Shown piece by piece: positions 277-63,689 of a stretch of DNA of 64,000 bases; position 1 is the first letter of the stretch, and the number at the start of each line of letters is the position of its first letter. The stretch comes from Candidatus Uhrbacteria bacterium (GTDB lineage: Bacteria > Patescibacteriota > Patescibacteriia > JACRJV01). The DNA lies in contig JACRJV010000019.1 of NCBI GenBank assembly GCA_016215325.1, forward strand, positions 9,959 to 73,958, given 5' to 3'. The notes below the pieces were generated by a model. That model worked only from the letters and a program-made list of their open reading frames with translations, was not told the DNA's origin and did no database searches. Position numbers and translations under genes: made by a program.

Positions 277-1524
277 TCAATGTATTCTGTCAACACCCAA
301 TACTAAATTCGGATTGACATCGAGTTTCTTCCACGGCGTGAATTGTTTTTTGAGTGCATGGAAGTATCCGGCAATCGCGATCATGACGGCGTTGTCGGTG
401 CAGAACGAAGGTATTGGTAATTGGTAATTAGTAATTGGTAATTCGCGAGCAACAGCCGCCGCGAGTTGCTCACGAAGTTGTTTGTTGGCGGCCACGCCAC
501 CGGCGAGAATGACTGTTTTAATCTTGTATTCTTTTGCCGCGCGTATTGTTTTTGCCACCAGTACATCAACGACAGCTTTTTGGAAACTGGCGCAGATATC
601 CGCAACAACAACAGGAGTTAGCTTGTAGCTTTTAGCTTGTAGCGTCGTCACCCTACCAGCTAATTTCCTAATTTCCAATTCTTTTACCTTGTAGAGCACC
701 GCCGTCTTAATCCCGGAAAAACTAAAATCATAATCATTGCTCTTGATCATCGGGGCGCTGAAAGGGAACACGGTCGGGTCGCCACTTTCTGCAAGACGCG
801 AGACCACCGGCCCTCCCGGATACTCTAACCCCAAAATCTTTGCCACTTTATCAAACGCTTCTCCCACCGCATCATCGCGCGTGGCTCCGATGATTTTATA
901 ACCCAACGGTTTTTTCATGAGCACAAGCTCTGTGTGACCGCCCGAGACGACGAGGGCCAGGGCGGGATAGGGTATGGGGGTTAGGGTATGGGGGTTAGGG
1001 TCGGTTTTCACGCCTAAACCCTGGACCCTGAACCCTATACCCTTTCGCTGCAGCCAGGCTGCAGCGATGTGTCCTTCCATGTGGTTGACCGCCACCAACG
1101 GAATCTTCCATGCCCACGCGAGGGTCCGCGCTGTTTCGACGCCGACCATCAACGAGGTGATCAGCCCTGGGCCATAGGTGACTGCAATGGCATCGATCGG
1201 GGGTTTTGTATTTAGTATTTTGTATTTAGTATTTGTTTCGGATTTCGGATTTCGAATTTCGGATTTTCGCCCTGCTGAGACGAGCGCCTTCTCCACTACC
1301 GGAATAATCTTCTCTACATGCTCCCGCGCTGCCACCTCCGGCACCACCCCACCGGTCTTCCGGTGTGTCGCAATCTGCGAATGCACGACATTGGAAAGAA
1401 TTTTCACGTCAATATTCCCCGACCAAAGGCTCCGTCGAGACGGGGCCTGCGTGGAGGGGCTCGAAAATTCGAGTACCGCCGCAGCCGTCTCATCGCAACT
1501 GGTTTCAATCCCAAGAATTCTCAT
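277..1524 (-). CDS. tsaD: tRNA N6-adenosine threonylcarbamoyltransferase TsaD (Kae1/Gcp), with four in-frame repeat insertions
   Basis: MRILGIETSCDETAAAV..., GGVVPEVAAREH, HMEGH, VVSGGH, AFDKVAKILGLEYPGGP and FCTDNAVMIA motifs. The track ORF starts earlier (1593); the conserved start MRIL is at 1524. The protein is about 75 aa longer than typical TsaD because of four low-complexity insertions. Confidence 0.9.
   Translation of the reverse strand: MRILGIETSCDETAAAVLEFSSPSTQAPSRRSLWSGNIDVKILSNVVHSQIATHRKTGGVVPEVAAREHVEKIIPVVEKALVSAGRKSEIRNPKSETNTKYKILNTKPPIDAIAVTYGPGLITSLMVGVETARTLAWAWKIPLVAVNHMEGHIAAAWLQRKGIGFRVQGLGVKTDPNPHTLTPIPYPALALVVSGGHTELVLMKKPLGYKIIGATRDDAVGEAFDKVAKILGLEYPGGPVVSRLAESGDPTVFPFSAPMIKSNDYDFSFSGIKTAVLYKVKELEIRKLAGRVTTLQAKSYKLTPVVVADICASFQKAVVDVLVAKTIRAAKEYKIKTVILAGGVAANKQLREQLAAAVARELPITNYQLPIPSFCTDNAVMIAIAGYFHALKKQFTPWKKLDVNPNLVLGVDRIH
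410..447. repeat. Tandem repeat GGTAATT(A/G)GTAATTGG inside tsaD (encodes ...LPITNYQLPIP...)
   Basis: The string ggtattggtaattggtaattagtaattggtaattcg is visible; it is an in-frame insertion relative to the conserved TsaD C-terminal FCTDN region. Confidence 0.6.
618..690. repeat. Tandem repeat AGCTTGTAGC / TAATTTCC inside tsaD (encodes ...LQAKSYKLTPVV...)
   Basis: gttagcttgtagcttttagcttgtagcg followed by taatttcctaatttccaatt. The coding frame is maintained. Confidence 0.55.
964..1043. repeat. Palindromic repeat (GGGTATGGGGGTTAGGGT x2 ... CTAAACCCTGGACCCTGAACCCTATACCC) inside tsaD
   Basis: Two GT-rich direct copies are followed by their approximate reverse complement. It translates in frame as GIGFRVQGLGVKTDPNPHTLTPIPYP, inserted between the HMEGH and VVSGGH motifs. 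Confidence 0.65.
1203..1268. repeat. Tandem repeat GTATTTAGTATTT / TTCGGATTTCGG inside tsaD
   Basis: gttttgtatttagtattttgtatttagtatttgtttcggatttcggatttcgaatttcggatttt. It translates in frame as ...SEIRNPKSETNTKYKILNTKPP... between conserved TsaD segments. Confidence 0.65.
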
Positions 1525-1528
1525 ACCA

Positions 1529-2347
1529 TTACCGTAAAAGAACATCTTTCTTCCTTTTGTTCGTAAAATCAACAACTGTTTCCCGCTGCTCATCTCCCAT
1601 CATCTCCCACATCACCTCAAAGATTGACTTGAAAATGTCGACCATGGCCGGGACCGCCACGACCACGGCTAACGAACTCAGGTGCGGGCTCACGATGAGA
1701 ATTTGATCCGGATAAATATCAATCGTGCTTTTAAAAGTATACTTGGCGGGGAGGTATCGTACATCGCGCAATAGTTTAGGATCGGCCGGATTGTCCGTAC
1801 GCGAATCAGCGGTGAGGAGCAACCGTGTTTTAATGTTTGTCCGCCCGCGCTCCACGCGAAACCGCTTGAAAAATGCCGGATCAATATCTTCCCAGCCATG
1901 CAACGAACCAATAATGCAGTATTTTTTATTCTTGTACCGCATCAGAAGACTGGTATAGAACGCTTCTAATTCTTCTTTTGTTTCGATGAACCGTAACCCC
2001 AACTGCTGGTCTTGTTTCCTTCCCAACGACTCAAGCGTTGGGATAATATTAGTAAACAACTCTAATTTTTTCTCAAAATACTGCGCCAACCGCTGCGGCT
2101 TTTCGGCGTAGTAATAGCGCTTGTTCTTACGAAAATATACCGAAACAAAACCCTTGTCTGATAAGGTCTTGAGGATAGCGTAAATTGTCGTGCGCTTCAA
2201 ACCAGCCTCTTTGGCAACCGTGCTGGCAAGCGACCCACCGATTTTAAGTAATGCTAAATAAACACTCACTTCCGGCTCTGAAAGGCCGAGGTTTTTGAGG
2301 ATTGCAATGTTTTCCATAGTGTCTAAATTGTACAACACTTTATTCAT
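1529..2347 (-). CDS. TrmB-family HTH transcriptional regulator
   Basis: N-terminal ...LKNLGLSEPEVSVYLALLKIGGSLASTVAKEAGLKRTTIYAILKTLSDKGFV (TrmB-type wHTH). Start probably at the internal MENIAIL (2317). Confidence 0.7.
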   Translation of the reverse strand: MNKVLYNLDTMENIAILKNLGLSEPEVSVYLALLKIGGSLASTVAKEAGLKRTTIYAILKTLSDKGFVSVYFRKNKRYYYAEKPQRLAQYFEKKLELFTNIIPTLESLGRKQDQQLGLRFIETKEELEAFYTSLLMRYKNKKYCIIGSLHGWEDIDPAFFKRFRVERGRTNIKTRLLLTADSRTDNPADPKLLRDVRYLPAKYTFKSTIDIYPDQILIVSPHLSSLAVVVAVPAMVDIFKSIFEVMWEMMGDEQRETVVDFTNKRKKDVLLR

Positions 2348-2499: not shown

Positions 2500-3027
2500 A
2501 TGGACAGCATCAACCGATTCATCTTCTTCACCCTGGCAACGTTGATGAATGACTGCGAGGAGAAATGGGGCAAGATATTCGGAGAAAGGTTCGCGTGCGC
2601 AAAAGAATATTTCCGAGACACAACCAATGGCAAAGTGTCCACCCGCCTCTACTTTAACGAGAGCGACGATGCCTTTTACGATGGGAATGTGCTGGAGTTG
2701 CTTCCGTTCTTACAGCATTACTCCCTCCTCATTGCCGAAGACTTGCGGCATTGGGAAAGCATTCACGCTACCGTTTACATCCATCTGGGGTGCGATGGAG
2801 AAGCGTGGGGACGAACTCTCTTGGAGGCAACGCTGCAAGCAATCCTTACCATCCAACTTCTACCAAGACCTGACGCGATCACGGTCTGGAGTTGCCGGTG
2901 CATCCACCAGTTCGTCCGCACTATGTTGCCGCATTCCTATCACAAGATCTGGCCATGTGGGGAAAATGGCTGCGATAAATTTCTGGAGACTGTGGTCAAG
3001 ATCAGCCAGTCTGGTGATACGTTCTAA
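2500..3027 (+). CDS. hypothetical protein
   Basis: 175-aa ORF with plausible composition and no recognisable motif. Immediately upstream of a receiver-domain gene. Confidence 0.4.
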   Translation: MDSINRFIFFTLATLMNDCEEKWGKIFGERFACAKEYFRDTTNGKVSTRLYFNESDDAFYDGNVLELLPFLQHYSLLIAEDLRHWESIHATVYIHLGCDGEAWGRTLLEATLQAILTIQLLPRPDAITVWSCRCIHQFVRTMLPHSYHKIWPCGENGCDKFLETVVKISQSGDTF

Positions 3028-8594: not shown

Positions 8595-10634
8595 ATGCCG
8601 TTTACTCTCGTTCCACCCTATCCCCCTTCTGGTGATCAACCCCGTGCGATCCAACAGCTCACAACTGGGGTCCGCTCTGGCGCCCATGATCAAGTATTGT
8701 TGGGCGTAACCGGATCCGGCAAAACCTTCACGATCGCCAATGTGATTCAATCCGTTCAAAAGCCGACATTGGTCATCGCTCACAACAAAACGTTGGCCGC
8801 ACAACTCACGCAAGAGTTCCGTACGTTCTTCCCCAACAATGCGGTGGAATACTTTGTCTCGTATTATGACTATTACCAACCAGAGGCCTACCTCCCATCC
8901 ACGGATACCTACATAGAAAAAGAGACGCAAATCAATGAGGAGATTGATCGCCTCCGCCATGCGGCCACCACCGCCATAATGACCCGCACCGACGTGATTG
9001 TCGTGGCCACGGTCTCCTGTATCTACAGTCTCGGCTCCCCAAATGAATACAAAAAAATGCTGATTGGGCTCGTGGTCGGCCAGCCGACTGAACGCCAAGC
9101 ATTGTTAGAACAATTGATTACGCTGCATTACACCCGCAACGATATTCTCAAACGCGGCTGCTTCCGGGCCAAAGGGGAATTATTCGAACTCATGCTGCCA
9201 GACAAAGAACAGATCATCCGCGTTGACTTGAGTGGCGGCGTGGTGCGCTCGATCGAGGTGTTTGATGCCGTGAGCCGCGCACAGCGCGAAAGCGTCCAAC
9301 AGCTGCTCGTGTTCCCGGCCAAGCATTTTGTGGTCGCCGAAGGAGTCAAGGAGGCGGCACTCCAGGCCATCGAACAAGAACTCAACCAACGCCTGGCTAC
9401 TCTCGACAAAGAGGGTAAGTTGTTGGAAGCCGAACGCCTCAAACGCCGCACGCGCTATGATCTGGCTATGATCCGAGAGATCGGTTATTGTAGTGGAATT
9501 GAAAATTACTCGCGCTATTTGTCTGCTCGGCCGCCTGGCAGTCCTCCGTACACACTCGTGGATTATTTCCCCAAAGATTTTTTGATGGTGATCGATGAGT
9601 CCCACGTGACGGTCCCTCAAATCGGCGGCATGTATGCCGGGGATCGCAGCCGCAAACAAACATTGGTCGAGCACGGGTTCCGCCTGCCCTCGGCGCTGGA
9701 CAACCGACCGCTCCAATTTAGCGAATTCGAAGAGCGCATGCCGCAGACAATTTACACCAGTGCCACACCGGGGAAGTATGAGCTTGGCAAGACGAGTCCC
9801 GCCGCAGCAGGATCCCGCACGCTGCGGGATAAGTCAAGCTCCGCCGATTCTTCATCTCTTCATCTCTTCATCTCTTCATCTCCCCTCATCATCGAGCAAA
9901 TCGTCCGCCCCACTGGCCTTGTAGACCCCGAAATTGTTCTCAAGCCCGCAGACAACCAAATCCCGGATCTTGAGAAAGAAATAGGGAAAGAAATAGAGAA
10001 TAAATGCCGGGTACTGGTGACCACGCTCACGAAAAAAATGGCAGAGGACTTGAGTGAGTATCTCCATGATCGCGGATACAAAACAAAGTATCTGCACAGC
10101 GATGTGGATACGATGGACCGAATCCGGGTGTTGGAAGACCTGCGCCGCGGCACCATCGACATCTTGATTGGTGTCAACCTGTTGCGGGAAGGGCTCGATC
10201 TCCCGGAGGTTTCGCTGGTGGCCATCTTGGATGCCGACAAAGAAGGGTTCTTGCGCAGCGACACGTCACTCATCCAAACCATGGGCCGTGCCGCCCGCAA
10301 CATCCGCGGCCGGGTGATCCTCTACGCCAATACGGTGACCGGCTCCATGAAGCGCGCCATTACCGAGACCAGCCGCCGCCGCAAAAAACAAGTCGAGTAT
10401 AACCTCGAGCATGGCATCACTCCCAAGTCCATCGAAAAGGCCATCCAATCCATTGTGGATTACGAACTCAAGCCGGAACTGCCGAGTGAATTTGTGGAGA
10501 TCGAAAAGTTCGAGGATGTCCCGGGGCTGATCAAAATAAAAATGAAAGAAGCCGCGCAGAGATTGGAGTTCGAACGGGCGGCTTTGATCAGAGATGAAGT
10601 AGTCCAATTAAAAAAACTCATCAGCACCCGATGA
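8595..10634 (+). CDS. uvrB: excinuclease ABC subunit B (UvrB) carrying a 33-aa in-frame repeat insertion
   Basis: Walker A GVTGSGKTFT, VIDESHVT, beta-hairpin region, helicase motif VI and the C-terminal UvrB-C domain (EAAQRLEFERAALIRDE). Confidence 0.95.
   Translation: MPFTLVPPYPPSGDQPRAIQQLTTGVRSGAHDQVLLGVTGSGKTFTIANVIQSVQKPTLVIAHNKTLAAQLTQEFRTFFPNNAVEYFVSYYDYYQPEAYLPSTDTYIEKETQINEEIDRLRHAATTAIMTRTDVIVVATVSCIYSLGSPNEYKKMLIGLVVGQPTERQALLEQLITLHYTRNDILKRGCFRAKGELFELMLPDKEQIIRVDLSGGVVRSIEVFDAVSRAQRESVQQLLVFPAKHFVVAEGVKEAALQAIEQELNQRLATLDKEGKLLEAERLKRRTRYDLAMIREIGYCSGIENYSRYLSARPPGSPPYTLVDYFPKDFLMVIDESHVTVPQIGGMYAGDRSRKQTLVEHGFRLPSALDNRPLQFSEFEERMPQTIYTSATPGKYELGKTSPAAAGSRTLRDKSSSADSSSLHLFISSSPLIIEQIVRPTGLVDPEIVLKPADNQIPDLEKEIGKEIENKCRVLVTTLTKKMAEDLSEYLHDRGYKTKYLHSDVDTMDRIRVLEDLRRGTIDILIGVNLLREGLDLPEVSLVAILDADKEGFLRSDTSLIQTMGRAARNIRGRVILYANTVTGSMKRAITETSRRRKKQVEYNLEHGITPKSIEKAIQSIVDYELKPELPSEFVEIEKFEDVPGLIKIKMKEAAQRLEFERAALIRDEVVQLKKLISTR
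9795..9893. repeat. Repeat element inserted in frame in uvrB (GTCCCGCCGCAGCAGGATCCCGCACGCTGCGGGA hairpin plus (TTCATCTC)x4)
   Basis: Translates as SPAAAGSRTLRDKSSSADSSSLHLFISSSPLII between the conserved TSATPGKYELGKT and EQIVRPTGLVDP. The same GTCCCGCCGCAGCGGGATCCCGC word recurs at 18575-18610. Confidence 0.6.
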
Positions 10635-15460: not shown

Positions 15461-15477
15461 ACCACCGAGTAAATTAA

Positions 15478-15535
15478 GCAAGATAAGCGAGATAAGTAAA
15501 TTAAGCGAGACACGCAAGATAAGCTATTTTTACAA
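15478..15535. repeat. Intercistronic repeat (GTAAATTAAGC / AAGATAAGCGAGATAAG family)
   Basis: taaattaagcaagataagcgagataagtaaattaagcgagacacgcaagataagc; the same words flank the 4HB gene at 62400-62882. Confidence 0.55.
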
Positions 15536-21184: not shown

Positions 21185-24085
21185 ATGGAAAAAATCATCG
21201 TGCGTGGTGCCAAAGAACATAACCTCAAAAATGTGAACCTCGAAATCCCTCGGGATAAGCTTATCGTATTTACCGGGATCTCGGGATCGGGTAAATCCAC
21301 CCTCGCGTTTGATACCATCTTTGCCGAAGGCCAGCGCCGCTATTTAGAATCTCTTTCTTCGTATGCCCGCCAATTTTTAGGGCAGATGAAAAAACCGGAC
21401 GTCGAATCCATCGATGGACTCTCGCCCGCAATTTCGATCGACCAAAAAACCGCATCGCATAATCCGCGATCCACTGTCGGCACCGTCACCGAAATCTACG
21501 ACTATCTGCGATTGCTGTATTCCAAGATCGGCCTCCCGCATTGCCTGGATTGCGGTCGCGCGATCCAGCAACTCACCATTGATCAGATCGTGGAGTCAAT
21601 AATCGATGAGTTCAACGGGCAAGAGGTGATGATCTTTTCCCCGGTCGTGCGCGGGCGCAAAGGCGAATATCATACTCTGCTCAACGACTTCTATCTCAAA
21701 GGGTATGCCAAAGCGCGGGTTAATGGCGCCCTGGTGGCTCTGGGGGAGCGTATTGTGTTGGATCGCTATAAAACCCACACCATCGACATATTGATGGATG
21801 CGGTCATCGCGACCGTTGAGAACATGGGTCGATTGTTTGAGGCCGTCGAATTTGCCACCGGCAATGCCGAGGGAAATGTACTTGTCGCGAGTAAATCAAG
21901 CGGGTCAAGTAAATTAAGCTTGTCGCGAACGAAGAAAAAAAACTCTCTAGAACCTAGCGCCTATAACCTAGAACCTCAAACCGAACGCCTCTATAACCTC
22001 AAACTCGCGTGCCCCTATTGCAATTTGAGTTTTCCCGAAATTGCTCCACGCCTTTTCTCTTTCAACAGCCCCTACGGCGCTTGCCCGACGTGCACGGGGT
22101 TAGGAATAAAAAAAGAAATTGATCCAGAACTGATCATCCCTGACAAAACGAAAACGATCGAAGAAGGCGGAATCCTCCCAGATTCCTACAGCCAATTTAA
22201 TTATTATGGATCGATCTTGCGCTCACTGGCGGATCACTACCACCTCCCCAGCAACCGCCGCATCAAGGACCTCCCCAAAGAAACACTCAATGCCATCCTT
22301 TATGGCGCAGAAGATCCCATTCCTCTGCGTGTCAAATACTACATGAATGGACGGCCGCGCGTCTTCAAGACTCGCTTCCCAGGACTCATCCCATTGTTAG
22401 AGGAACGCTATCAAAAAACAGAATCTGACACGGTGCGATCGGATATCGAGGCGTATATGTCCAGCTCCGATTGTCCCACGTGCCACGGAGCGCGGCTCAA
22501 ACCCGAAGCATTAGCTGTAAAAGTCAGTACCCAGTCGATTGTTGATATCGCGCAACAATCCATCGCCAGCGCATATCAGTTTTTCCAAACGCTCCCCGCG
22601 ATACTCAATGCACGGCAAACACTCATCGCCGATCGCATCCTCAAAGAAATCACCAATCGGCTCAAATTCTTAGTGAATGTCGGCTTAGAATATCTCACCC
22701 TGAGTCGCACCGCCAATACCTTGGCCGGCGGCGAAGCACAACGCATTCGCCTCGCCAGCCAAGTGGGCAGCGCCCTCACCGGCGTGCTCTATGTACTGGA
22801 TGAGCCGTCGATTGGCCTCCATAGCCGAGATAACGCCAAACTGTTAGAGACCTTAAAACACCTGCGCGATATCGGCAACACTCTGATCGTGATCGAACAT
22901 GACGAAGAAACTATGCGAGAAGCCGACTGGCTCGTGGATATCGGGCCCCGCGCGGGCAAGCACGGCGGCACGATCATCGCCAGCGGCCCTCCCGAGCAGG
23001 TGATCAAGCACCCAACATCGTTGACCGCTCAATATTTGCGCGGAGAGCGCTCAATACCAGTGCCAGAGCAACGTCGAAGGCCACGCAAAAACTCTTTAAT
23101 CATTCGCGGGGCTCGCGAACATAACCTTAAAAACATTGCGGTCGAAATCCCGCTGGGGGTGCTTGTCTGTATTACCGGTGTATCAGGCTCGGGAAAATCC
23201 ACGCTCATAGAGGATATCCTCTATCCGGCGCTGGCGAAGAAACTCCATCATGCCAACACCCGGGCGGGACTCCATACAACCATCGAAGGAATCGAACACA
23301 TTGATAAGGTCATTGTCATCGATCAATCGCCCATCGGCCGCACACCGCGCTCGAACCCCGCCACCTATACGGGGATGTTTACGCCCATCCGAGAACTATT
23401 TGCCGCCACCAAGGGGGGGCGCATCCGAGGCTATGGCCCGGGGCGGTTCAGTTTTAATGTCCGCGGCGGACGGTGCGAAGCCTGCCAAGGGGACGGCGTC
23501 CAGAAAATCGAGATGCAATTTTTGCCTGATGTGTATATCCCCTGCGATGTCTGCGCCGGCAAACGCTATACCTCTGAAACACTGGCGATTACGTACAATG
23601 ATAAAAACATTGCAGACGTCTTAGCGATGACTGTTGAAGAAGGATATCTATTTTTTAAAGATATTCCCCAAATTGCCGACAAGCTAAACATCCTTAATGA
23701 TGTCGGCTTAGGGTATATTGAGTTGGGCCAGTCCGCCACCACGCTCTCCGGCGGCGAAGCGCAACGGATTAAGCTCGCCACCGAGCTGGCGCGCCGCGCC
23801 ACCGGCAGAACATTCTACATCCTCGATGAGCCGACCACGGGCTTGCACTTTGAAGATATCCATAAGCTCCTGTCGGTGCTCGAGCGCCTGGTGGATGCCG
23901 GCAATACCGTCTTAGTGATCGAGCATCAACTCGACGTGGTCAAAACCGCGGATTGGATTATTGATCTTGGCCCCGAAGGAGGAGACAAGGGTGGCAGTAT
24001 TGTAGCCCAAGGCACGCCCGAGCAGGTCGCCAAGATGAAACAAAGTTACACGGGACAGTTTTTAAAACCTCTTCTCAAGCAATAA
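21185..24085 (+). CDS. uvrA: excinuclease ABC subunit A (UvrA) carrying an in-frame repeat insertion
   Basis: Two ABC modules ([15 protein letters not shown]; [13 protein letters not shown]), LSGGEAQRI signature twice, and zinc-finger CxxC pairs. Confidence 0.95.
21890..21985. repeat. Repeat element inserted in frame in uvrA (GTAAATCAAGCGGGTCAAGTAAATTAAGC plus TAGAACCTAG/TATAACCT words)
   Basis: Translates [31 protein letters not shown] between the conserved ...NAEGNVLVA and [13 protein letters not shown]. It shares the GTAAATTAAGC word with 15478-15535 and the 4HB flanks. Confidence 0.55.
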
Positions 24086-43648: not shown

Positions 43649-46758
<3,110 letters not shown>

Positions 46759-46793
46759 ATTAAAAGGCATGGAATACATCTATTCTCTTCAGT

Positions 46794-60178: not shown

Positions 60179-60853
60179 TTATGAATCAAAGATATCTTTT
60201 TCTAATTTTTTTGCCTGCGCAACAAAAAAATTCCTCCATTCTTCATGATCAATTGTTGTGATCATTCGCGGAAGATCCTCAACTTCGATCGCTTGCAGTA
60301 ACCGTGCTCCCAATTGTGCGGCATCAATATGCCAATCAAACTTGATTTTTGCTGCCTTGAGAAGATCGGCAAAGCTATATGAGAACGTTTGGAGAATAAA
60401 ATAAATGTCTATATAGTCACGTGATCGTGGCTTCATGACAATCGTATGCACCTTATTTACGGCAATATCGTAGCAACTATCAACAGTAACGCCGTGATGC
60501 CGTAACCCCTTCTCGATGCGTGGAAACGGATAATAGTTAAAATCGACTTTCAAAGAGTCTCCATTCGGGAATGAATAGAGGAATGTGTGAAGCCCAAAGT
60601 AGTTTTGATAATCAACACGTTGCGCGCCGATCTTCTGCTGAACCTTTTTTACAAACGGCCGCACCAAGGTAACATCGAACTCTTCCTCGCAAAACAAATC
60701 GATGTCTTCAGAGTATCGATGTTGAAGATAAAATTCTGCCAACGCTGTCCCTCCGGTGAGATAAAAACGCTGAGAAAATTTTTTTTCATCCCCAAATAGT
60801 TCTAAAAATTGCGTTTGCTCTTTGGTGAGAATGCTTTTGGGAGTCTTCCCCAT
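60179..60853 (-). CDS. AbiEii/AbiGii-family nucleotidyltransferase (type IV toxin-antitoxin toxin)
   Basis: FYLTGGTALAEFYLQHRYSEDIDLF matches the GGTAL...RxSxDIDL signature of the AbiEii (DUF1814) family. Confidence 0.65.
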   Translation of the reverse strand: MGKTPKSILTKEQTQFLELFGDEKKFSQRFYLTGGTALAEFYLQHRYSEDIDLFCEEEFDVTLVRPFVKKVQQKIGAQRVDYQNYFGLHTFLYSFPNGDSLKVDFNYYPFPRIEKGLRHHGVTVDSCYDIAVNKVHTIVMKPRSRDYIDIYFILQTFSYSFADLLKAAKIKFDWHIDAAQLGARLLQAIEVEDLPRMITTIDHEEWRNFFVAQAKKLEKDIFDS

Positions 60854-61122
60854 AATAGAAATTCAAAGTACTGAGCTTTCAGTGGGTCAAGTGATAACTT
60901 ACTCCAATACCGCTTCAAATCACTTCTACTAATCTTACTCCCTCGCAGTCCGTAATTAATCTGTTGTTCTAACTTCCACTGCTCGAATTTACCGGCCTTT
61001 TTCAGAGCGGTTTCATCAGTCGACCAGTTATAATAAGATGGGGACGATTGTTTCATACCACTGTAGTATAGCATAGAATGCCCAATGAATCCAGTGTTCG
61101 GACCGACGCATTTCACCATCAT
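60802..61122 (-). CDS. small ORF upstream of, and overlapping, the AbiEii-like gene (possible truncated antitoxin partner)
   Basis: 84-106 aa with no recognisable HTH; the 52-nt overlap with the toxin start suggests translational coupling. Confidence 0.25.
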   Translation of the reverse strand: MMVKCVGPNTGFIGHSMLYYSGMKQSSPSYYNWSTDETALKKAGKFEQWKLEQQINYGLRGSKISRSDLKRYWSKLSLDPLKAQYFEFLLWGRLPKAFSPKSKRNF

Positions 61123-61905: not shown

Positions 61906-62298
61906 CTAGCGTTTCAGCAGTCGGTATGGGTGTCTCACCGCGGGGGTGAGACCTTCGGCCTTAACGGCCGAGATGATGTCCTTCTCCAGCCACCCCACTG
62001 CGGCCCACCCATCAGGATAAATCACAGCACCGGTGCCAGTGGGGTTGATCTGTTCCCCGAACGGGCTTGACTCCCATCGCACGAGCCATTCCCCATCCCT
62101 GCCCTTAATCTGGAAACGCCCCGTGCAAAAGGTGATTGGTATCATCACCTTTTCACTCGTCCAAACGCTTACGCCCTCCTCCTCGCCGATGGCCAAGGTA
62201 TGCTGATAGTCGAGGTTGGCCAATGTTGGGTAGCAGACCCCCTGGCCTCCGACTCTGTCAAACCTCAAAACCGATCCCTCGGATGGCTTCACAAACAT
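61906..62298 (-). CDS. hypothetical protein on GC-rich DNA
   Basis: 130-aa ORF with coherent composition and no motif recognised. Confidence 0.35.
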   Translation of the reverse strand: MFVKPSEGSVLRFDRVGGQGVCYPTLANLDYQHTLAIGEEEGVSVWTSEKVMIPITFCTGRFQIKGRDGEWLVRWESSPFGEQINPTGTGAVIYPDGWAAVGWLEKDIISAVKAEGLTPAVRHPYRLLKR

Positions 62299-62399
62299 GA
62301 TTGAATCCTCCAATTGTCAGCGTTCGTGCCTTGACCAGAACGCGGTAGCATAGTATACTCTAAATGAGTGGTCAATATCGCCACGTGGTGATTAGTAGC

Positions 62400-62459
62400 A
62401 CCTTATTACGAGCAAGATAAGCGAGATAAGCAAGACAAGTAAATTAAGCACGACATGCT
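62400..62459. repeat. Left inverted repeat flanking the 4HB gene (AAGATAAGCGAGATAAGCAAGACAAGTAAATTAAGC)
   Basis: Its reverse complement is found at 62836-62882. Confidence 0.6.
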
Positions 62460-62834
62460 ATGGGAAACATTCATTCATTCCGCGACCTTTTAGTCTGGCA
62501 AAAAGCACACCAGTTGGTGCTGGAAATATATCGTCTTACCAAGAAATTCCCTTCGAACGAAATGTTTGGCTTAGTCTCTCAGATCCGTAGGGCCACAGTC
62601 TCCGTTGCTTCCAACATCGTAGAAGGCTTTAACCGCTCCAGTGTTCAAGACAGTCTGCATTTCTACACCATGGCCCATGCGTCACTCGAGGAAGTAAAAT
62701 ATCAGCTGCTCGTCGCCCGTGACTTGCAGTACATTACTCAACAAGAATACAATCATACACTTTGTTTAGGAGAAGAAGTGAGTAAATTATTGCGATCCTG
62801 GATCAATAGCCAGAAAGAGAATACGAAGGCGTAA
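62460..62834 (+). CDS. four-helix-bundle protein (23S rRNA intervening-sequence protein / Avd family)
   Basis: FRDLLVWQKAHQLVLEIYRLTKKFP...EMFGLVSQIRRATVSVASNIVEGF...HFYTMAHASLEEVKYQLLVARDL is the classic family pattern. Confidence 0.85.
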   Translation: MGNIHSFRDLLVWQKAHQLVLEIYRLTKKFPSNEMFGLVSQIRRATVSVASNIVEGFNRSSVQDSLHFYTMAHASLEEVKYQLLVARDLQYITQQEYNHTLCLGEEVSKLLRSWINSQKENTKA

Positions 62835-62835
62835 C

Positions 62836-62882
62836 GGCTTAATTTACTTATCTTGCTTATCTCGCTTAATTTACTTCGTATG
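62836..62882. repeat. Right inverted repeat flanking the 4HB gene (GCTTAATTTACTTATCTTGCTTATCTCGCTTAATTTAC)
   Basis: Near-perfect reverse complement of 62405-62452. Confidence 0.6.
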
Positions 62883-63689
62883 GATTCCCAACTCTTCGAA
62901 CAACTCGGCCTGTCCCCCAACGAGGCCAAGATCTACGAGTCGCTCCTGCAAAACCGGCGGGTGGCTGTCTCGACGATTACGCTCAAGTCCGGAGTACACC
63001 GACGGAATGTGTATGATGCCCTCCAACGCCTGATCGAAAAGGGGTTGGTGTATCGCATTATCGGCGAAGGGGAAAATCGCTTCGAAGCCGTGCACCCGCA
63101 CAAGCTCATGGAAGTAATAAAAGAAAAAGAGCATCGCCTTGACACGGCCATGCCCGAACTTGTGAAGCTCTTTGAAAAAGATGCCTCTAAAGAATCCGTA
63201 GCGATCTATAAAGGCGTTGAAGGATTTAAAAACTATATGCGCGATTTGGTGCGCGTGGCCCAAGACACCTATTTCCTCGGGGCCAAGGCGCTGTGGTACA
63301 GCCCGGGCGTGGACCGCACCTACCTGGATGATTTCGTGCGGGTGTCGAAACAGAAAAAACTCAAGTACAAAACGCTCTACGACCCACGGGTGCCAGAAAA
63401 ATTCCCCCAGGCCCTGAAGAACGTGGGCGGGCAATACAAGATCCTTCCCAGGGGGTACGAAACCACCGGGGTTTTAGATATCTTCGGCGACTATGTGGTG
63501 ACGTTCACCAGCGTGGACGTTGCCAACTTCGGCGAGGATGGCACAATCGTCGTCATGGTCAATAGAGAACTGGCGGAGAGCTACCGCACCTGGTTTAATC
63601 TCATCTGGGATTTATGTCCATCGTTCAATAACTCCATGAGGTCTCGAAGCGCGGGCAACGCCCCTACCCCTTCTTCTCTCGCGTTTTGA
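62853..63689 (+). CDS. TrmB-family HTH transcriptional regulator
   Basis: LFEQLGLSPNEAKIYESLLQNRRVAVSTITLKSGVHRRNVYDALQRLIEKGLV. Confidence 0.7.
   Translation: MLISLNLLRMDSQLFEQLGLSPNEAKIYESLLQNRRVAVSTITLKSGVHRRNVYDALQRLIEKGLVYRIIGEGENRFEAVHPHKLMEVIKEKEHRLDTAMPELVKLFEKDASKESVAIYKGVEGFKNYMRDLVRVAQDTYFLGAKALWYSPGVDRTYLDDFVRVSKQKKLKYKTLYDPRVPEKFPQALKNVGGQYKILPRGYETTGVLDIFGDYVVTFTSVDVANFGEDGTIVVMVNRELAESYRTWFNLIWDLCPSFNNSMRSRSAGNAPTPSSLAF

Follow-up and report, generated by a model that had tools for sequence, protein, structure and literature searches.

A four-helix-bundle gene framed by inverted arrays of short tandem units is inserted in the leader of a TrmB-family gene of Candidatus Uhrbacteria and probably represents a foldback-type cassette

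We analyzed a 64-kb stretch of a contig from Candidatus Uhrbacteria, a member of the candidate phyla radiation (CPR; Patescibacteria), which is referred to as the window here. Our focus was on a small gene for a four-helix-bundle (4HB) protein located immediately upstream of a gene for a TrmB-family helix-turn-helix (HTH) regulator. A prediction made from the sequence alone (the original prediction) had described this 124-amino-acid gene as bracketed by near-perfect inverted repeats of 40 bp that directly abut it and belong to a dispersed family. The gene assignment holds, since the product matches PF05635 (23S_rRNA_IVP) with an E value of 2.1e-37 (128 bits; cutoff, 33.8) and TIGR02436 with 121 bits (cutoff, 24), and it is 100% identical to an entry named “four helix bundle protein” from Candidatus Uhrbacteria bacterium at the National Center for Biotechnology Information (NCBI). 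The repeats are present as well, but their description is slightly generous: the arms have 39 nt each, lie 387 nt apart, and are 90% complementary (35/39 positions paired). They nearly abut the gene, with 10 nt between the left arm and the ATG at 62460 and 2 nt between the TAA (62832-62834) and the right arm, and only 4 nt separate the end of the right arm from the ATG of the TrmB-family gene. The arms themselves are tandem 9-mers (Tandem Repeats Finder [TRF] period 9, 4.4 copies), a feature absent from the original prediction. Of the three frames of the left arm that read toward the open reading frame (ORF), two contain stop codons. We refer to the arms and the enclosed gene as the cassette (Table 1). 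Besides this one complete cassette, the window contains two solo arrays of the same 9-mer unit family.

The arms stand out from the rest of the window, where they form the longest inverted-repeat pair within 1.5 kb. The 36-mer given for them in the original prediction matches exactly at 62414-62449 and, on the opposite strand, with 3 mismatches at 62837-62872; these are the only two places, and 0 matches are expected by chance (100 shuffles). As a measure of bracketing, we used the best ungapped inverted match between the 90 nt upstream of the start codon and the 90 nt downstream of the stop codon, with a significance threshold of a score of ≥11. The cassette scores 29.5, compared with a maximum of 12 among 1471 random placements of a 375-nt “gene” in the window. 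Because the cassette is reproduced by an independent Logan assembly (L001) and by a JGI contig (L088), it is not an assembly artifact. Folding of positions 62395-62895 as RNA, a check suggested in the original prediction, is predicted to place the ORF within a terminal stem of ∼40 bp formed by the two arms (−140.5 kcal/mol, z = −3.96), and this stem appears in both the minimum-free-energy and the centroid fold.

Table 1. Positions of the cassette, its host gene, and related solo arrays in the window
Feature	Position	Strand	Basis and remarks
TTGACC-17-TATACT, sigma-70-like promoter for the host TrmB-family gene, ahead of the insertion	62331..62359	+	Consensus scan, 10/12 matches; function inferred
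Host 5' leader GAGTGGTCAATATCGCCACGTGGTGATTAGTAGCACC, conserved; the insertion follows base 62402	62366..62402	+	Nearly invariant in the window, L088, L089, L091, and L092
Inserted segment (stem base, left arm, 4HB ORF, right arm)	62403..62879	+	477 nt; no counterpart in L091, ∼107-nt hairpin instead in L089/L090/L092, present in L088
Left arm, ∼4.4 tandem 9-nt units: GCAAGATAA GCGAGATAA GCAAGACAA GTAAATTAA GC	62411..62449	+	Inverted-repeat search, TRF
4HB gene, 124 amino acids, PF05635/TIGR02436	62460..62834	+	Profile matches
Right arm, reverse complement of the left-arm 9-mers: GC TTAATTTAC TTATCTTGC TTATCTCGC TTAATTTAC T	62837..62875	+	Inverted-repeat search
Host gene, TrmB-family HTH regulator	62880..63689	+	PF01978, E = 4e-16; orthologues 92-97% identical
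Solo array between aroB and aroC, six units of the cassette 9-mer family	15468..15524	-	Right-arm orientation relative to aroB/aroC
Three-unit array AGTAAATCAAGCGGGTCAAGTAAATTAAGC = AGTAAATCA AGCGGGTCA AGTAAATTA AGC, in frame in uvrA	21890..21919	+	Translated as 10 residues

We then compared the locus with orthologous TrmB sites, obtained by scanning metagenome contigs with the downstream TrmB-family protein. At these sites, the host leader ends with ...GTGGTGATTAGTAGCACC (62402 in the window), beyond which the loci diverge, and the promoter hexamers are conserved (L089, L091, and L092). Three states were found. Locus L091 is empty, with only CT between leader and ATG. Loci L089, L090, and L092, of which each is an independent assembly, carry an ORF-less hairpin of ∼107 nt, whose arms consist of GCGAGTCAA/GTAAATCAA-type units of the same 9-mer family as the cassette arms and enclose a loop of 13 nt; this hairpin folds at −32.5 kcal/mol (z = −4.8). 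The full cassette is present in the window and in L088. Given that empty, hairpin-only, and full states follow the same promoter and leader, the segment of the window is an insertion into the 5' leader of the TrmB-family gene, and gain and/or precise loss of these 477 nt has occurred among genomes whose adjacent TrmB proteins share 92-97% identity. The insertion polymorphism supports the earlier view of the locus as a cassette resembling MITEs (miniature inverted-repeat transposable elements) and carrying the 4HB gene. The more distant TrmB loci L093 and L094 (66-70%) are empty. Clustering of the TrmB proteins by neighbor joining (NJ) places the empty L091 nearest to the full L088 (97% identity) and the hairpin-only loci as their sister group, with empty outgroups. 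The promoter-proximal haplotypes are mosaic relative to the cassette state.

Insertions at this site begin immediately after the conserved 37-nt leader, which separates the promoter from the TrmB start codon and includes an imperfect palindrome (ATCGCCAC/GTGGTGAT); this leader could be an operator or RNA element of the TrmB-family gene. Upstream of a 64%-identical TrmB orthologue (L095, positions 2800-3000), the same position is occupied by a different insert of ∼200 nt with unrelated GC-rich hairpins, e.g., ATTCCCGACTTCTCGGGAAT. The TrmB site may act as a hot spot at which small elements of several kinds insert.

The PF05635/TIGR02436 family has been known from rRNA intervening sequences (IVSs) since the early 1990s; to our knowledge, it is represented by two crystal structures and has no known function. 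It comprises at least 22,158 clusters at 50% identity. The closest PDB relatives of the window protein are 2GSC (XCC0516; E = 5.9e-16) and 2RLD (E = 1.1e-5), and both depositions comprise five chains. The 4HB proteins of the window and L088 share 92% identity, and the ORF has a dN/dS of 0.05 at a dS of 0.80 between the two, which indicates that the protein is under strong purifying selection. At this divergence, 39/39 positions of the right arm agree, and a swapped unit variant is the only difference in the left arm, so that the arms are far more conserved than the synonymous sites of the ORF. Taken together, the low dN/dS and the identity of the right arm show that the protein is functional and that the arm sequence itself is constrained. 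We found no tblastn match to the 4HB protein in 50,697 phage records. The reading as a defense system was rejected, since no defense-system family in PADLOC was matched by the 4HB protein or its three upstream neighbors. Several members of the family (P0143, P0167, P0191, P0227, P0234, P0256, P0258, and P0259) are longer, with 270-460 amino acids and an N-terminal 4HB domain. They may have arisen by read-through as fusions with the downstream gene, given that many right arms leave the outward frame open.

The bracketed design recurs in most of the examined relatives of the window gene. Among the closest homologues (60-74% identity), L002 and L005 lie upstream of a convergent KhpA-like gene; homologue L006 lies between UDP-glucose dehydrogenase-like and PfkB-like genes, and L007 lies between atpD and atpC of an ATP synthase operon. 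In spite of these different contexts, inverted arrays of the same 9-mer family, in lineage-specific variants, bracket 4/4 of these genes. For a broader survey, we scanned one genome per species for the protein family of the cassette and collected 80 further loci with 45-68% identity from CPR groups, Bacillota, Verrucomicrobiota, Planctomycetota, and others. In the resulting set of 81 loci, 57 (70%) have bracketing inverted arrays, compared with 1.0% of 480 controls, which were natural-sequence gaps of gene size placed randomly in the same loci (Mann-Whitney p = 5.5e-37). The median inverted-match score is 14.5, compared with a control mean of 7.0. The unit period is 7 in 24 loci, 8 in 17, and 9 in 13, and the number of units per arm has a median of 4.2 (interquartile range, 3.6-4.8). 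The 80 nt on either side of the 4HB ORF are 22-fold enriched in strict arrays compared with the rest of the loci. Of the additional 4HB copies with like flanks that the original prediction proposed to look for, none is present in the 64-kb window, but such genes exist among relatives in unrelated contexts. In the left arm of L002 (2941-2985), the tandem-unit array is interrupted by a GC-rich mini-hairpin of ∼40 nt (CCGCCCGAAGGCGGGG), a nested insertion inside the array.

Arms and ORF diverge together. The fraction of left-arm 6-mers shared between loci rises from 2% at a protein identity of <50% to 40-51% at ≥70% (Spearman 0.32, p = 3e-22), and the unit period tracks protein relatedness, with the observed value reached by 1/2000 permutations. 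This codivergence shows that arms and ORF are inherited as one unit. How the arms evolve is illustrated by L002 and L005, two loci with the downstream KhpA gene and terminator in common: CAAG in all left units of L002 becomes CCAG in L005 (unit GCAAGACCA), and CTTG becomes CTGG in all right units. The change is concerted and compensatory across all units of both arms.

The surroundings of the 4HB genes point to a life within host transcripts. An upstream ORF on the same strand ends within 150 nt in 57/77 loci, and a downstream ORF on the same strand starts within 90 nt in 49/77. The distance from the stop codon to the next ATG has a median of 41 nt and is thus essentially as long as the right arm. 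Inward reading from either side meets stop codons in each of the three frames within 50 nt in 57-61% of the loci, compared with 21-28% in the outward direction and 7% of random windows. Given this co-orientation, the inward stop codons, and the host promoter upstream of the insertion point, the cassette can be described, as far as sequence features tell, as promoterless, resident in host transcripts, and translationally insulated.

The design extends to cyanobacterial plasmids, where 6/9 examined copies show it. Five of these are from Nostocales: the 4HB genes on plasmids of Nostoc punctiforme (two copies), Aulosira, and Trichormus have arms of AGGAGTC/AGAATTC heptamers, and the one of Nostoc sp. 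ATCC 53789 has G-rich GGGAAAA-type units. The sixth, from Picosynechococcus PCC 7003 (L108), lies between cas10/cmr2 and cmr3 and looks like a cassette insertion because of its inverted arms (score, 14.5). On an Anabaena sp. 90 plasmid (L112), a 4HB gene is located upstream of cas4 without a significant inverted pair (score, 8). A CRISPR association has been reported for “23S rRNA IVP” (PMC10910872), and it may partly be due to insertions and not to a functional link. Published data on two further lineages can be read alongside: the supplementary Xanthomonas GGGAATC table includes an array overlapping the start of XCC0516 (PMC4692102), and in the 23S IVS of Coxiella, three tandem GACAGAT heptamers precede the S23p ORF and the terminal stem measures 28 bp (PMC4990558). 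The data from Nostocales plasmids, Xanthomonas, and Coxiella all fit the bracketed-array design, a connection that the two publications did not make. In our collection, 23S or 5S rRNA was found near the 4HB gene in 0/104 related loci.

Both additional copies of the repeat claimed in the original prediction are present in the window as solo arrays. The one near aroB and aroC, previously placed at 15478-15535, supplies the last codons and the stop codon of aroB and ends 9 nt before the likely ATG of aroC, with no hairpin predicted (z = −0.02). For the one in uvrA, no hairpin is predicted either. It is flanked on both sides by a 10-nt direct repeat, CTTGTCGCGA, which is ambiguous as a target-site duplication because the spacing of its copies, 38 nt, is no multiple of 3.

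Many arrays of other unit types occur in the window without a nearby 4HB gene. In uvrA (21185-24085), the 9-mer array is followed by a CTAGAAC heptamer array, with both in frame between 21890 and 21990, and uvrB (8595-10634) contains an in-frame tandem array of TCTTCATC (×4.2, 100% identity) at 9797-9887. The tsaD/Kae1-like ORF (277-1593, minus strand) has 438 amino acids, which exceeds a typical TsaD by ∼100, and contains four in-frame blocks of tandem 7- to 8-nt units (410-446, 619-680, 964-1043, and 1203-1269). Within the block at 955-1050, two inverted heptamer arrays form a hairpin (−39.3 kcal/mol, z = −4.0) that shares the design of the ORF-less hairpin at the TrmB site, yet is translated.

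The 23S rRNA gene of the window (43650-46759) has 3110 nt, compared with 2925 nt in the model, and has expansions of ∼62 and ∼85 nt in domain I; these expansions (∼150 nt, 43923-44120) contain no ORF and no tandem-unit hairpins. No 16S gene precedes it within the window, and the rRNA genes appear unlinked. Closer to the cassette, an ORF of 130 amino acids without a family match (61906-62298, minus strand) lies between orf182 and the TrmB promoter. It has no tblastn match in any of L088 to L092 and therefore represents a second indel beside the cassette. An AbiEii-type nucleotidyltransferase toxin gene (60179-61122, minus strand; PF08843, E = 2.3e-19) with an overlapping ORF of 106 amino acids upstream of it may form a type IV toxin-antitoxin pair, 1.3 kb from the cassette.

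Taken as a whole, these observations are best explained by the insertion of an IVS-type “foldback” cassette, in which a promoterless 4HB gene resides within inverted arrays of short units, and we give this explanation, including the mode of life outlined here, a probability of about 60%. Transcription of the cassette would come from read-through, driven by the host promoter ahead of the insertion point. The arms would then pair into the ∼40-bp stem around the ORF, and RNase III might cut this stem, as in the ORF-bearing 23S IVS of Coxiella, whose excision by RNase III was shown in vitro (PMC4990558). Because such a cleavage would separate the host message from the 4HB message, the host could tolerate the insert, and the 4HB protein would be translated from the separated cassette message, while the inward-facing stop codons of the arms would halt incoming ribosomes. 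The tandem units, with a median of about 4 per arm, may serve as binding sites for the 4HB protein. Its own flanking units appear to be its most plausible ligand, given the five chains of its structural relatives, the ∼4-5 units per arm, and the fact that Avd-type four-helix bundles bind nucleic acids. Such binding could be used for autoregulation and/or for gain and loss of the cassette, and ORF-less hairpins and solo arrays would represent deletion derivatives or footprints. The link between the 4HB gene and the repeats that the original prediction had considered conceivable thus stands as a statistical and evolutionary association, supported by the 22-fold enrichment and the codivergence, but not as a causal role in mobility or processing.

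Several observations weigh against this explanation. Among the 267 arm mismatches in 57 loci, G-T/T-G (57) and A-C/C-A (62) are about equally frequent, so that there is no excess of G·U-compatible pairs and selection on pairing in the sense RNA is not supported, although the test is weakened because many mismatches reflect the order of unit variants and not point substitutions. The symmetry fits better with conservation of the arms at the DNA level, with identical protein-binding sites at both ends, or with turnover of whole units. Around 30% of the 4HB loci lack a clear inverted pair, and in L056, L060, L068, L080, and L082 (from Bacillota and others), CCAAC-type arrays are found on both sides in direct orientation; with the same polarity on both sides, no enclosing stem is possible. 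Hairpins of cassette-like design are found in frame within essential genes (tsaD), where cleavage by RNase III would be harmful, and the 64-kb window contains no RNase III (rnc) signature motif, which is uninformative for the whole genome. The cassette encodes no transposase, recombinase, or nuclease, and the insert at the TrmB site lacks a flanking target-site duplication of ≥3 bp. Finally, the short branches of the NJ tree leave the polarity (loss or gain of the ORF) and the number of events undecided.

Of the alternatives, the one that survives best is a host regulatory system that is not mobile. The 4HB protein would then be a multimeric RNA-binding regulator similar to TRAP or CsrA and the arrays before start codons (of its own gene, TrmB, and aroC) would be its operators, with the inverted layout providing autoregulation through a competition between protein binding and stem formation. 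This would account for the positions of the arrays, which end close to start codons (4 nt at TrmB, 9 nt at aroC, and the median of 41 nt to the next ATG), for the combination of ∼4 units per arm with five chains in the closest PDB relatives, and for the strong conservation of the protein; moreover, a network of TAACTGA heptamers upstream of start codons has been published (PMC4679880). However, three site states among genomes with 92-97% identical TrmB proteins, unit sequences that are lineage specific, arrays translated in frame in uvrA and tsaD, and homologues wedged into unrelated operons amount to a volatility not expected of a regulon. We therefore consider a purely regulatory system unlikely.

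It is also conceivable that the hairpins are primary, as tandem-repeat palindromes that are generated by slippage or are separately mobile, and that the 4HB ORF is a passenger that repeatedly landed in their loops or was captured by them and has no role towards the arms. The ORF-less hairpins at the TrmB site and inside tsaD, the many arrays of other units without a 4HB gene nearby in the window, and the 186 arrays listed for Xanthomonas (PMC4692102) would agree with this idea. On the other hand, the gaps of 10 and 2 nt between arms and ORF leave no room for ORF-specific ends, arrays are strongly enriched beside 4HB genes, and both sequence and period of the arm units codiverge with the protein, as expected if they travel together. 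The passenger scenario is thus rather improbable in our view.

The original prediction had also compared the protein to the accessory subunit (Avd) of diversity-generating retroelements (DGRs), and an Avd gene with repeats related to the template and variable regions (TR and VR) would be the corresponding explanation. The protein shares the four-helix-bundle superfamily fold with Avd and has a weak similarity to it (PF22296, E = 9.6e-12; NF033474, E = 8.9e-11), but its 42 bits fall below the cutoff of 80 of the NF033474 equivalog, in contrast to the 121 bits for TIGR02436, and Avd belongs to a separate genetic module. No reverse transcriptase is found among the scanned neighbors (AbiEii, the TrmB-family regulator, and two proteins without a Pfam match), with the window ending 1.1 kb downstream; the repeats are 9-nt tandem units and not a TR/VR pair, and there are no phage matches. 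The comparison did not hold, and we rejected the identification as a DGR Avd protein, which is highly improbable given the subcutoff equivalog score and the lack of a neighboring reverse transcriptase or TR/VR pair. Weakest of all is the reading as a chance or generic feature, i.e., an ordinary bidirectional terminator with an upstream hairpin: although intergenic hairpins are common, this reading is already refuted by the controls, as the observed score is reached by 0/1471 random placements in the window, the arms lack a T-run and consist of A/T-rich tandem units at which no terminator-like site was called, and the pattern recurs in 70% of the homologous loci.

Among known systems, the ORF-bearing 23S rRNA IVSs of Leptospira and Coxiella burnetii (“S23p” ORF) are the closest to the foldback cassette, as they contain the same PF05635 protein family. 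They are similar in size (428-444 nt in Coxiella, 477 nt for the cassette) and have short tandem units just upstream of the ORF (GACAGAT ×3 in Coxiella) (PMC4990558). Both are embedded in a host transcript, have terminal inverted repeats as an enclosing stem, and exist in ORF-less versions. They differ in that the host of the cassette is an mRNA leader or intercistronic spacer and not an rRNA helix, with the 23S gene ∼15.6 kb away in the window, and in that both cassette arms are overtly tandem arrays. Furthermore, the cassette ORF is under strong purifying selection while the Coxiella ORF is decaying, and excision by RNase III was shown for Coxiella while it is inferred for the cassette, whose ∼40-bp stem would be a plausible substrate. 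What is new relative to the known IVSs is thus the habitat in mRNA leaders and intercistronic spacers, the concerted arms of tandem units, the three-state polymorphism, and the generality across the family. We did not find a link of non-rRNA 4HB genes with tandem-unit inverted arms in the open-access literature; an earlier description elsewhere is possible.

Other repeats share individual features with the cassette. The Correia/NEMIS elements of Neisseria and other MITEs are short elements with inverted-repeat ends that are located beside genes and cotranscribed with them, form hairpins processed by RNase III, and show insertion polymorphism between strains. MITEs have terminal repeats of unique sequence, a target-site duplication, and no ORF, and their transposase is supplied elsewhere. 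The cassette resembles them in its insertion polymorphism and ORF-less derivatives and departs from them in its arms of tandem 7- to 9-mers, the lack of a detectable duplication, and a conserved ORF that is not a transposase. Foldback (FB) transposons of Drosophila and other eukaryotes have inverted termini of variable length made of short tandem units, and some copies carry a coding loop while others consist of nearly nothing but arms. They are eukaryotic, of kilobase scale, and have unrelated coding genes, so that the likeness to the cassette is one of design only and implies no homology. Rickettsia palindromic elements (RPEs) are palindromic repeats that are inserted in frame in protein-coding genes and translated, like the arrays and hairpins in tsaD, uvrA, and uvrB of the window. 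They form families of 100-150 bp of unique sequence, not tandem-unit arrays, and we know of no associated ORF-bearing form. Short heptamer arrays, such as the short tandemly repeated repetitive (STRR) sequences of cyanobacteria, the GGGAATC arrays of Xanthomonas (PMC4692102), and the TAACTGA arrays of Beggiatoaceae and cyanobacteria (PMC4679880), have units of 7 nt and up in ∼2-6 copies. Most of them lie between genes, and their ends are often located right ahead of a start codon; they have stop codons in all frames in one orientation and frequently form convergent pairs (70 pairs in X. campestris). The cassette units of the window differ in having 9 nt, and the two studies treat the arrays as G-quadruplex or regulatory motifs, without a link to 4HB genes or insertion polymorphism.

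A wider generalization is possible, although we put it forward only tentatively. The 4HB proteins might be the element-encoded, unit-specific nucleic-acid-binding factor of widespread prokaryotic “foldback” elements without a transposase, in which ORF-bearing cassettes are autonomous, short-repeat arrays and hairpins are nonautonomous derivatives or footprints, and each paralogue is matched to its own unit. If true, this would cover the cyanobacterial STRR, the Xanthomonas GGGAATC and the TAACTGA repeats, rRNA IVSs without an ORF, and the hairpins found in frame within housekeeping genes of CPR members.

At the TrmB site, the empty, the ORF-less hairpin, and the full cassette states are caught among near-identical genomes. 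For annotation, this means that 4HB genes wedged in cas, atp, and other operons are probably insertions and not components of these systems. Our analysis ties together the 4HB family and the short heptamer arrays, both of which have long been described and unexplained, and provides the 4HB protein with a concrete candidate ligand, namely, its own repeat units. Seen in this way, the rRNA IVS is one among the habitats of a general cassette with a life inside host transcripts.

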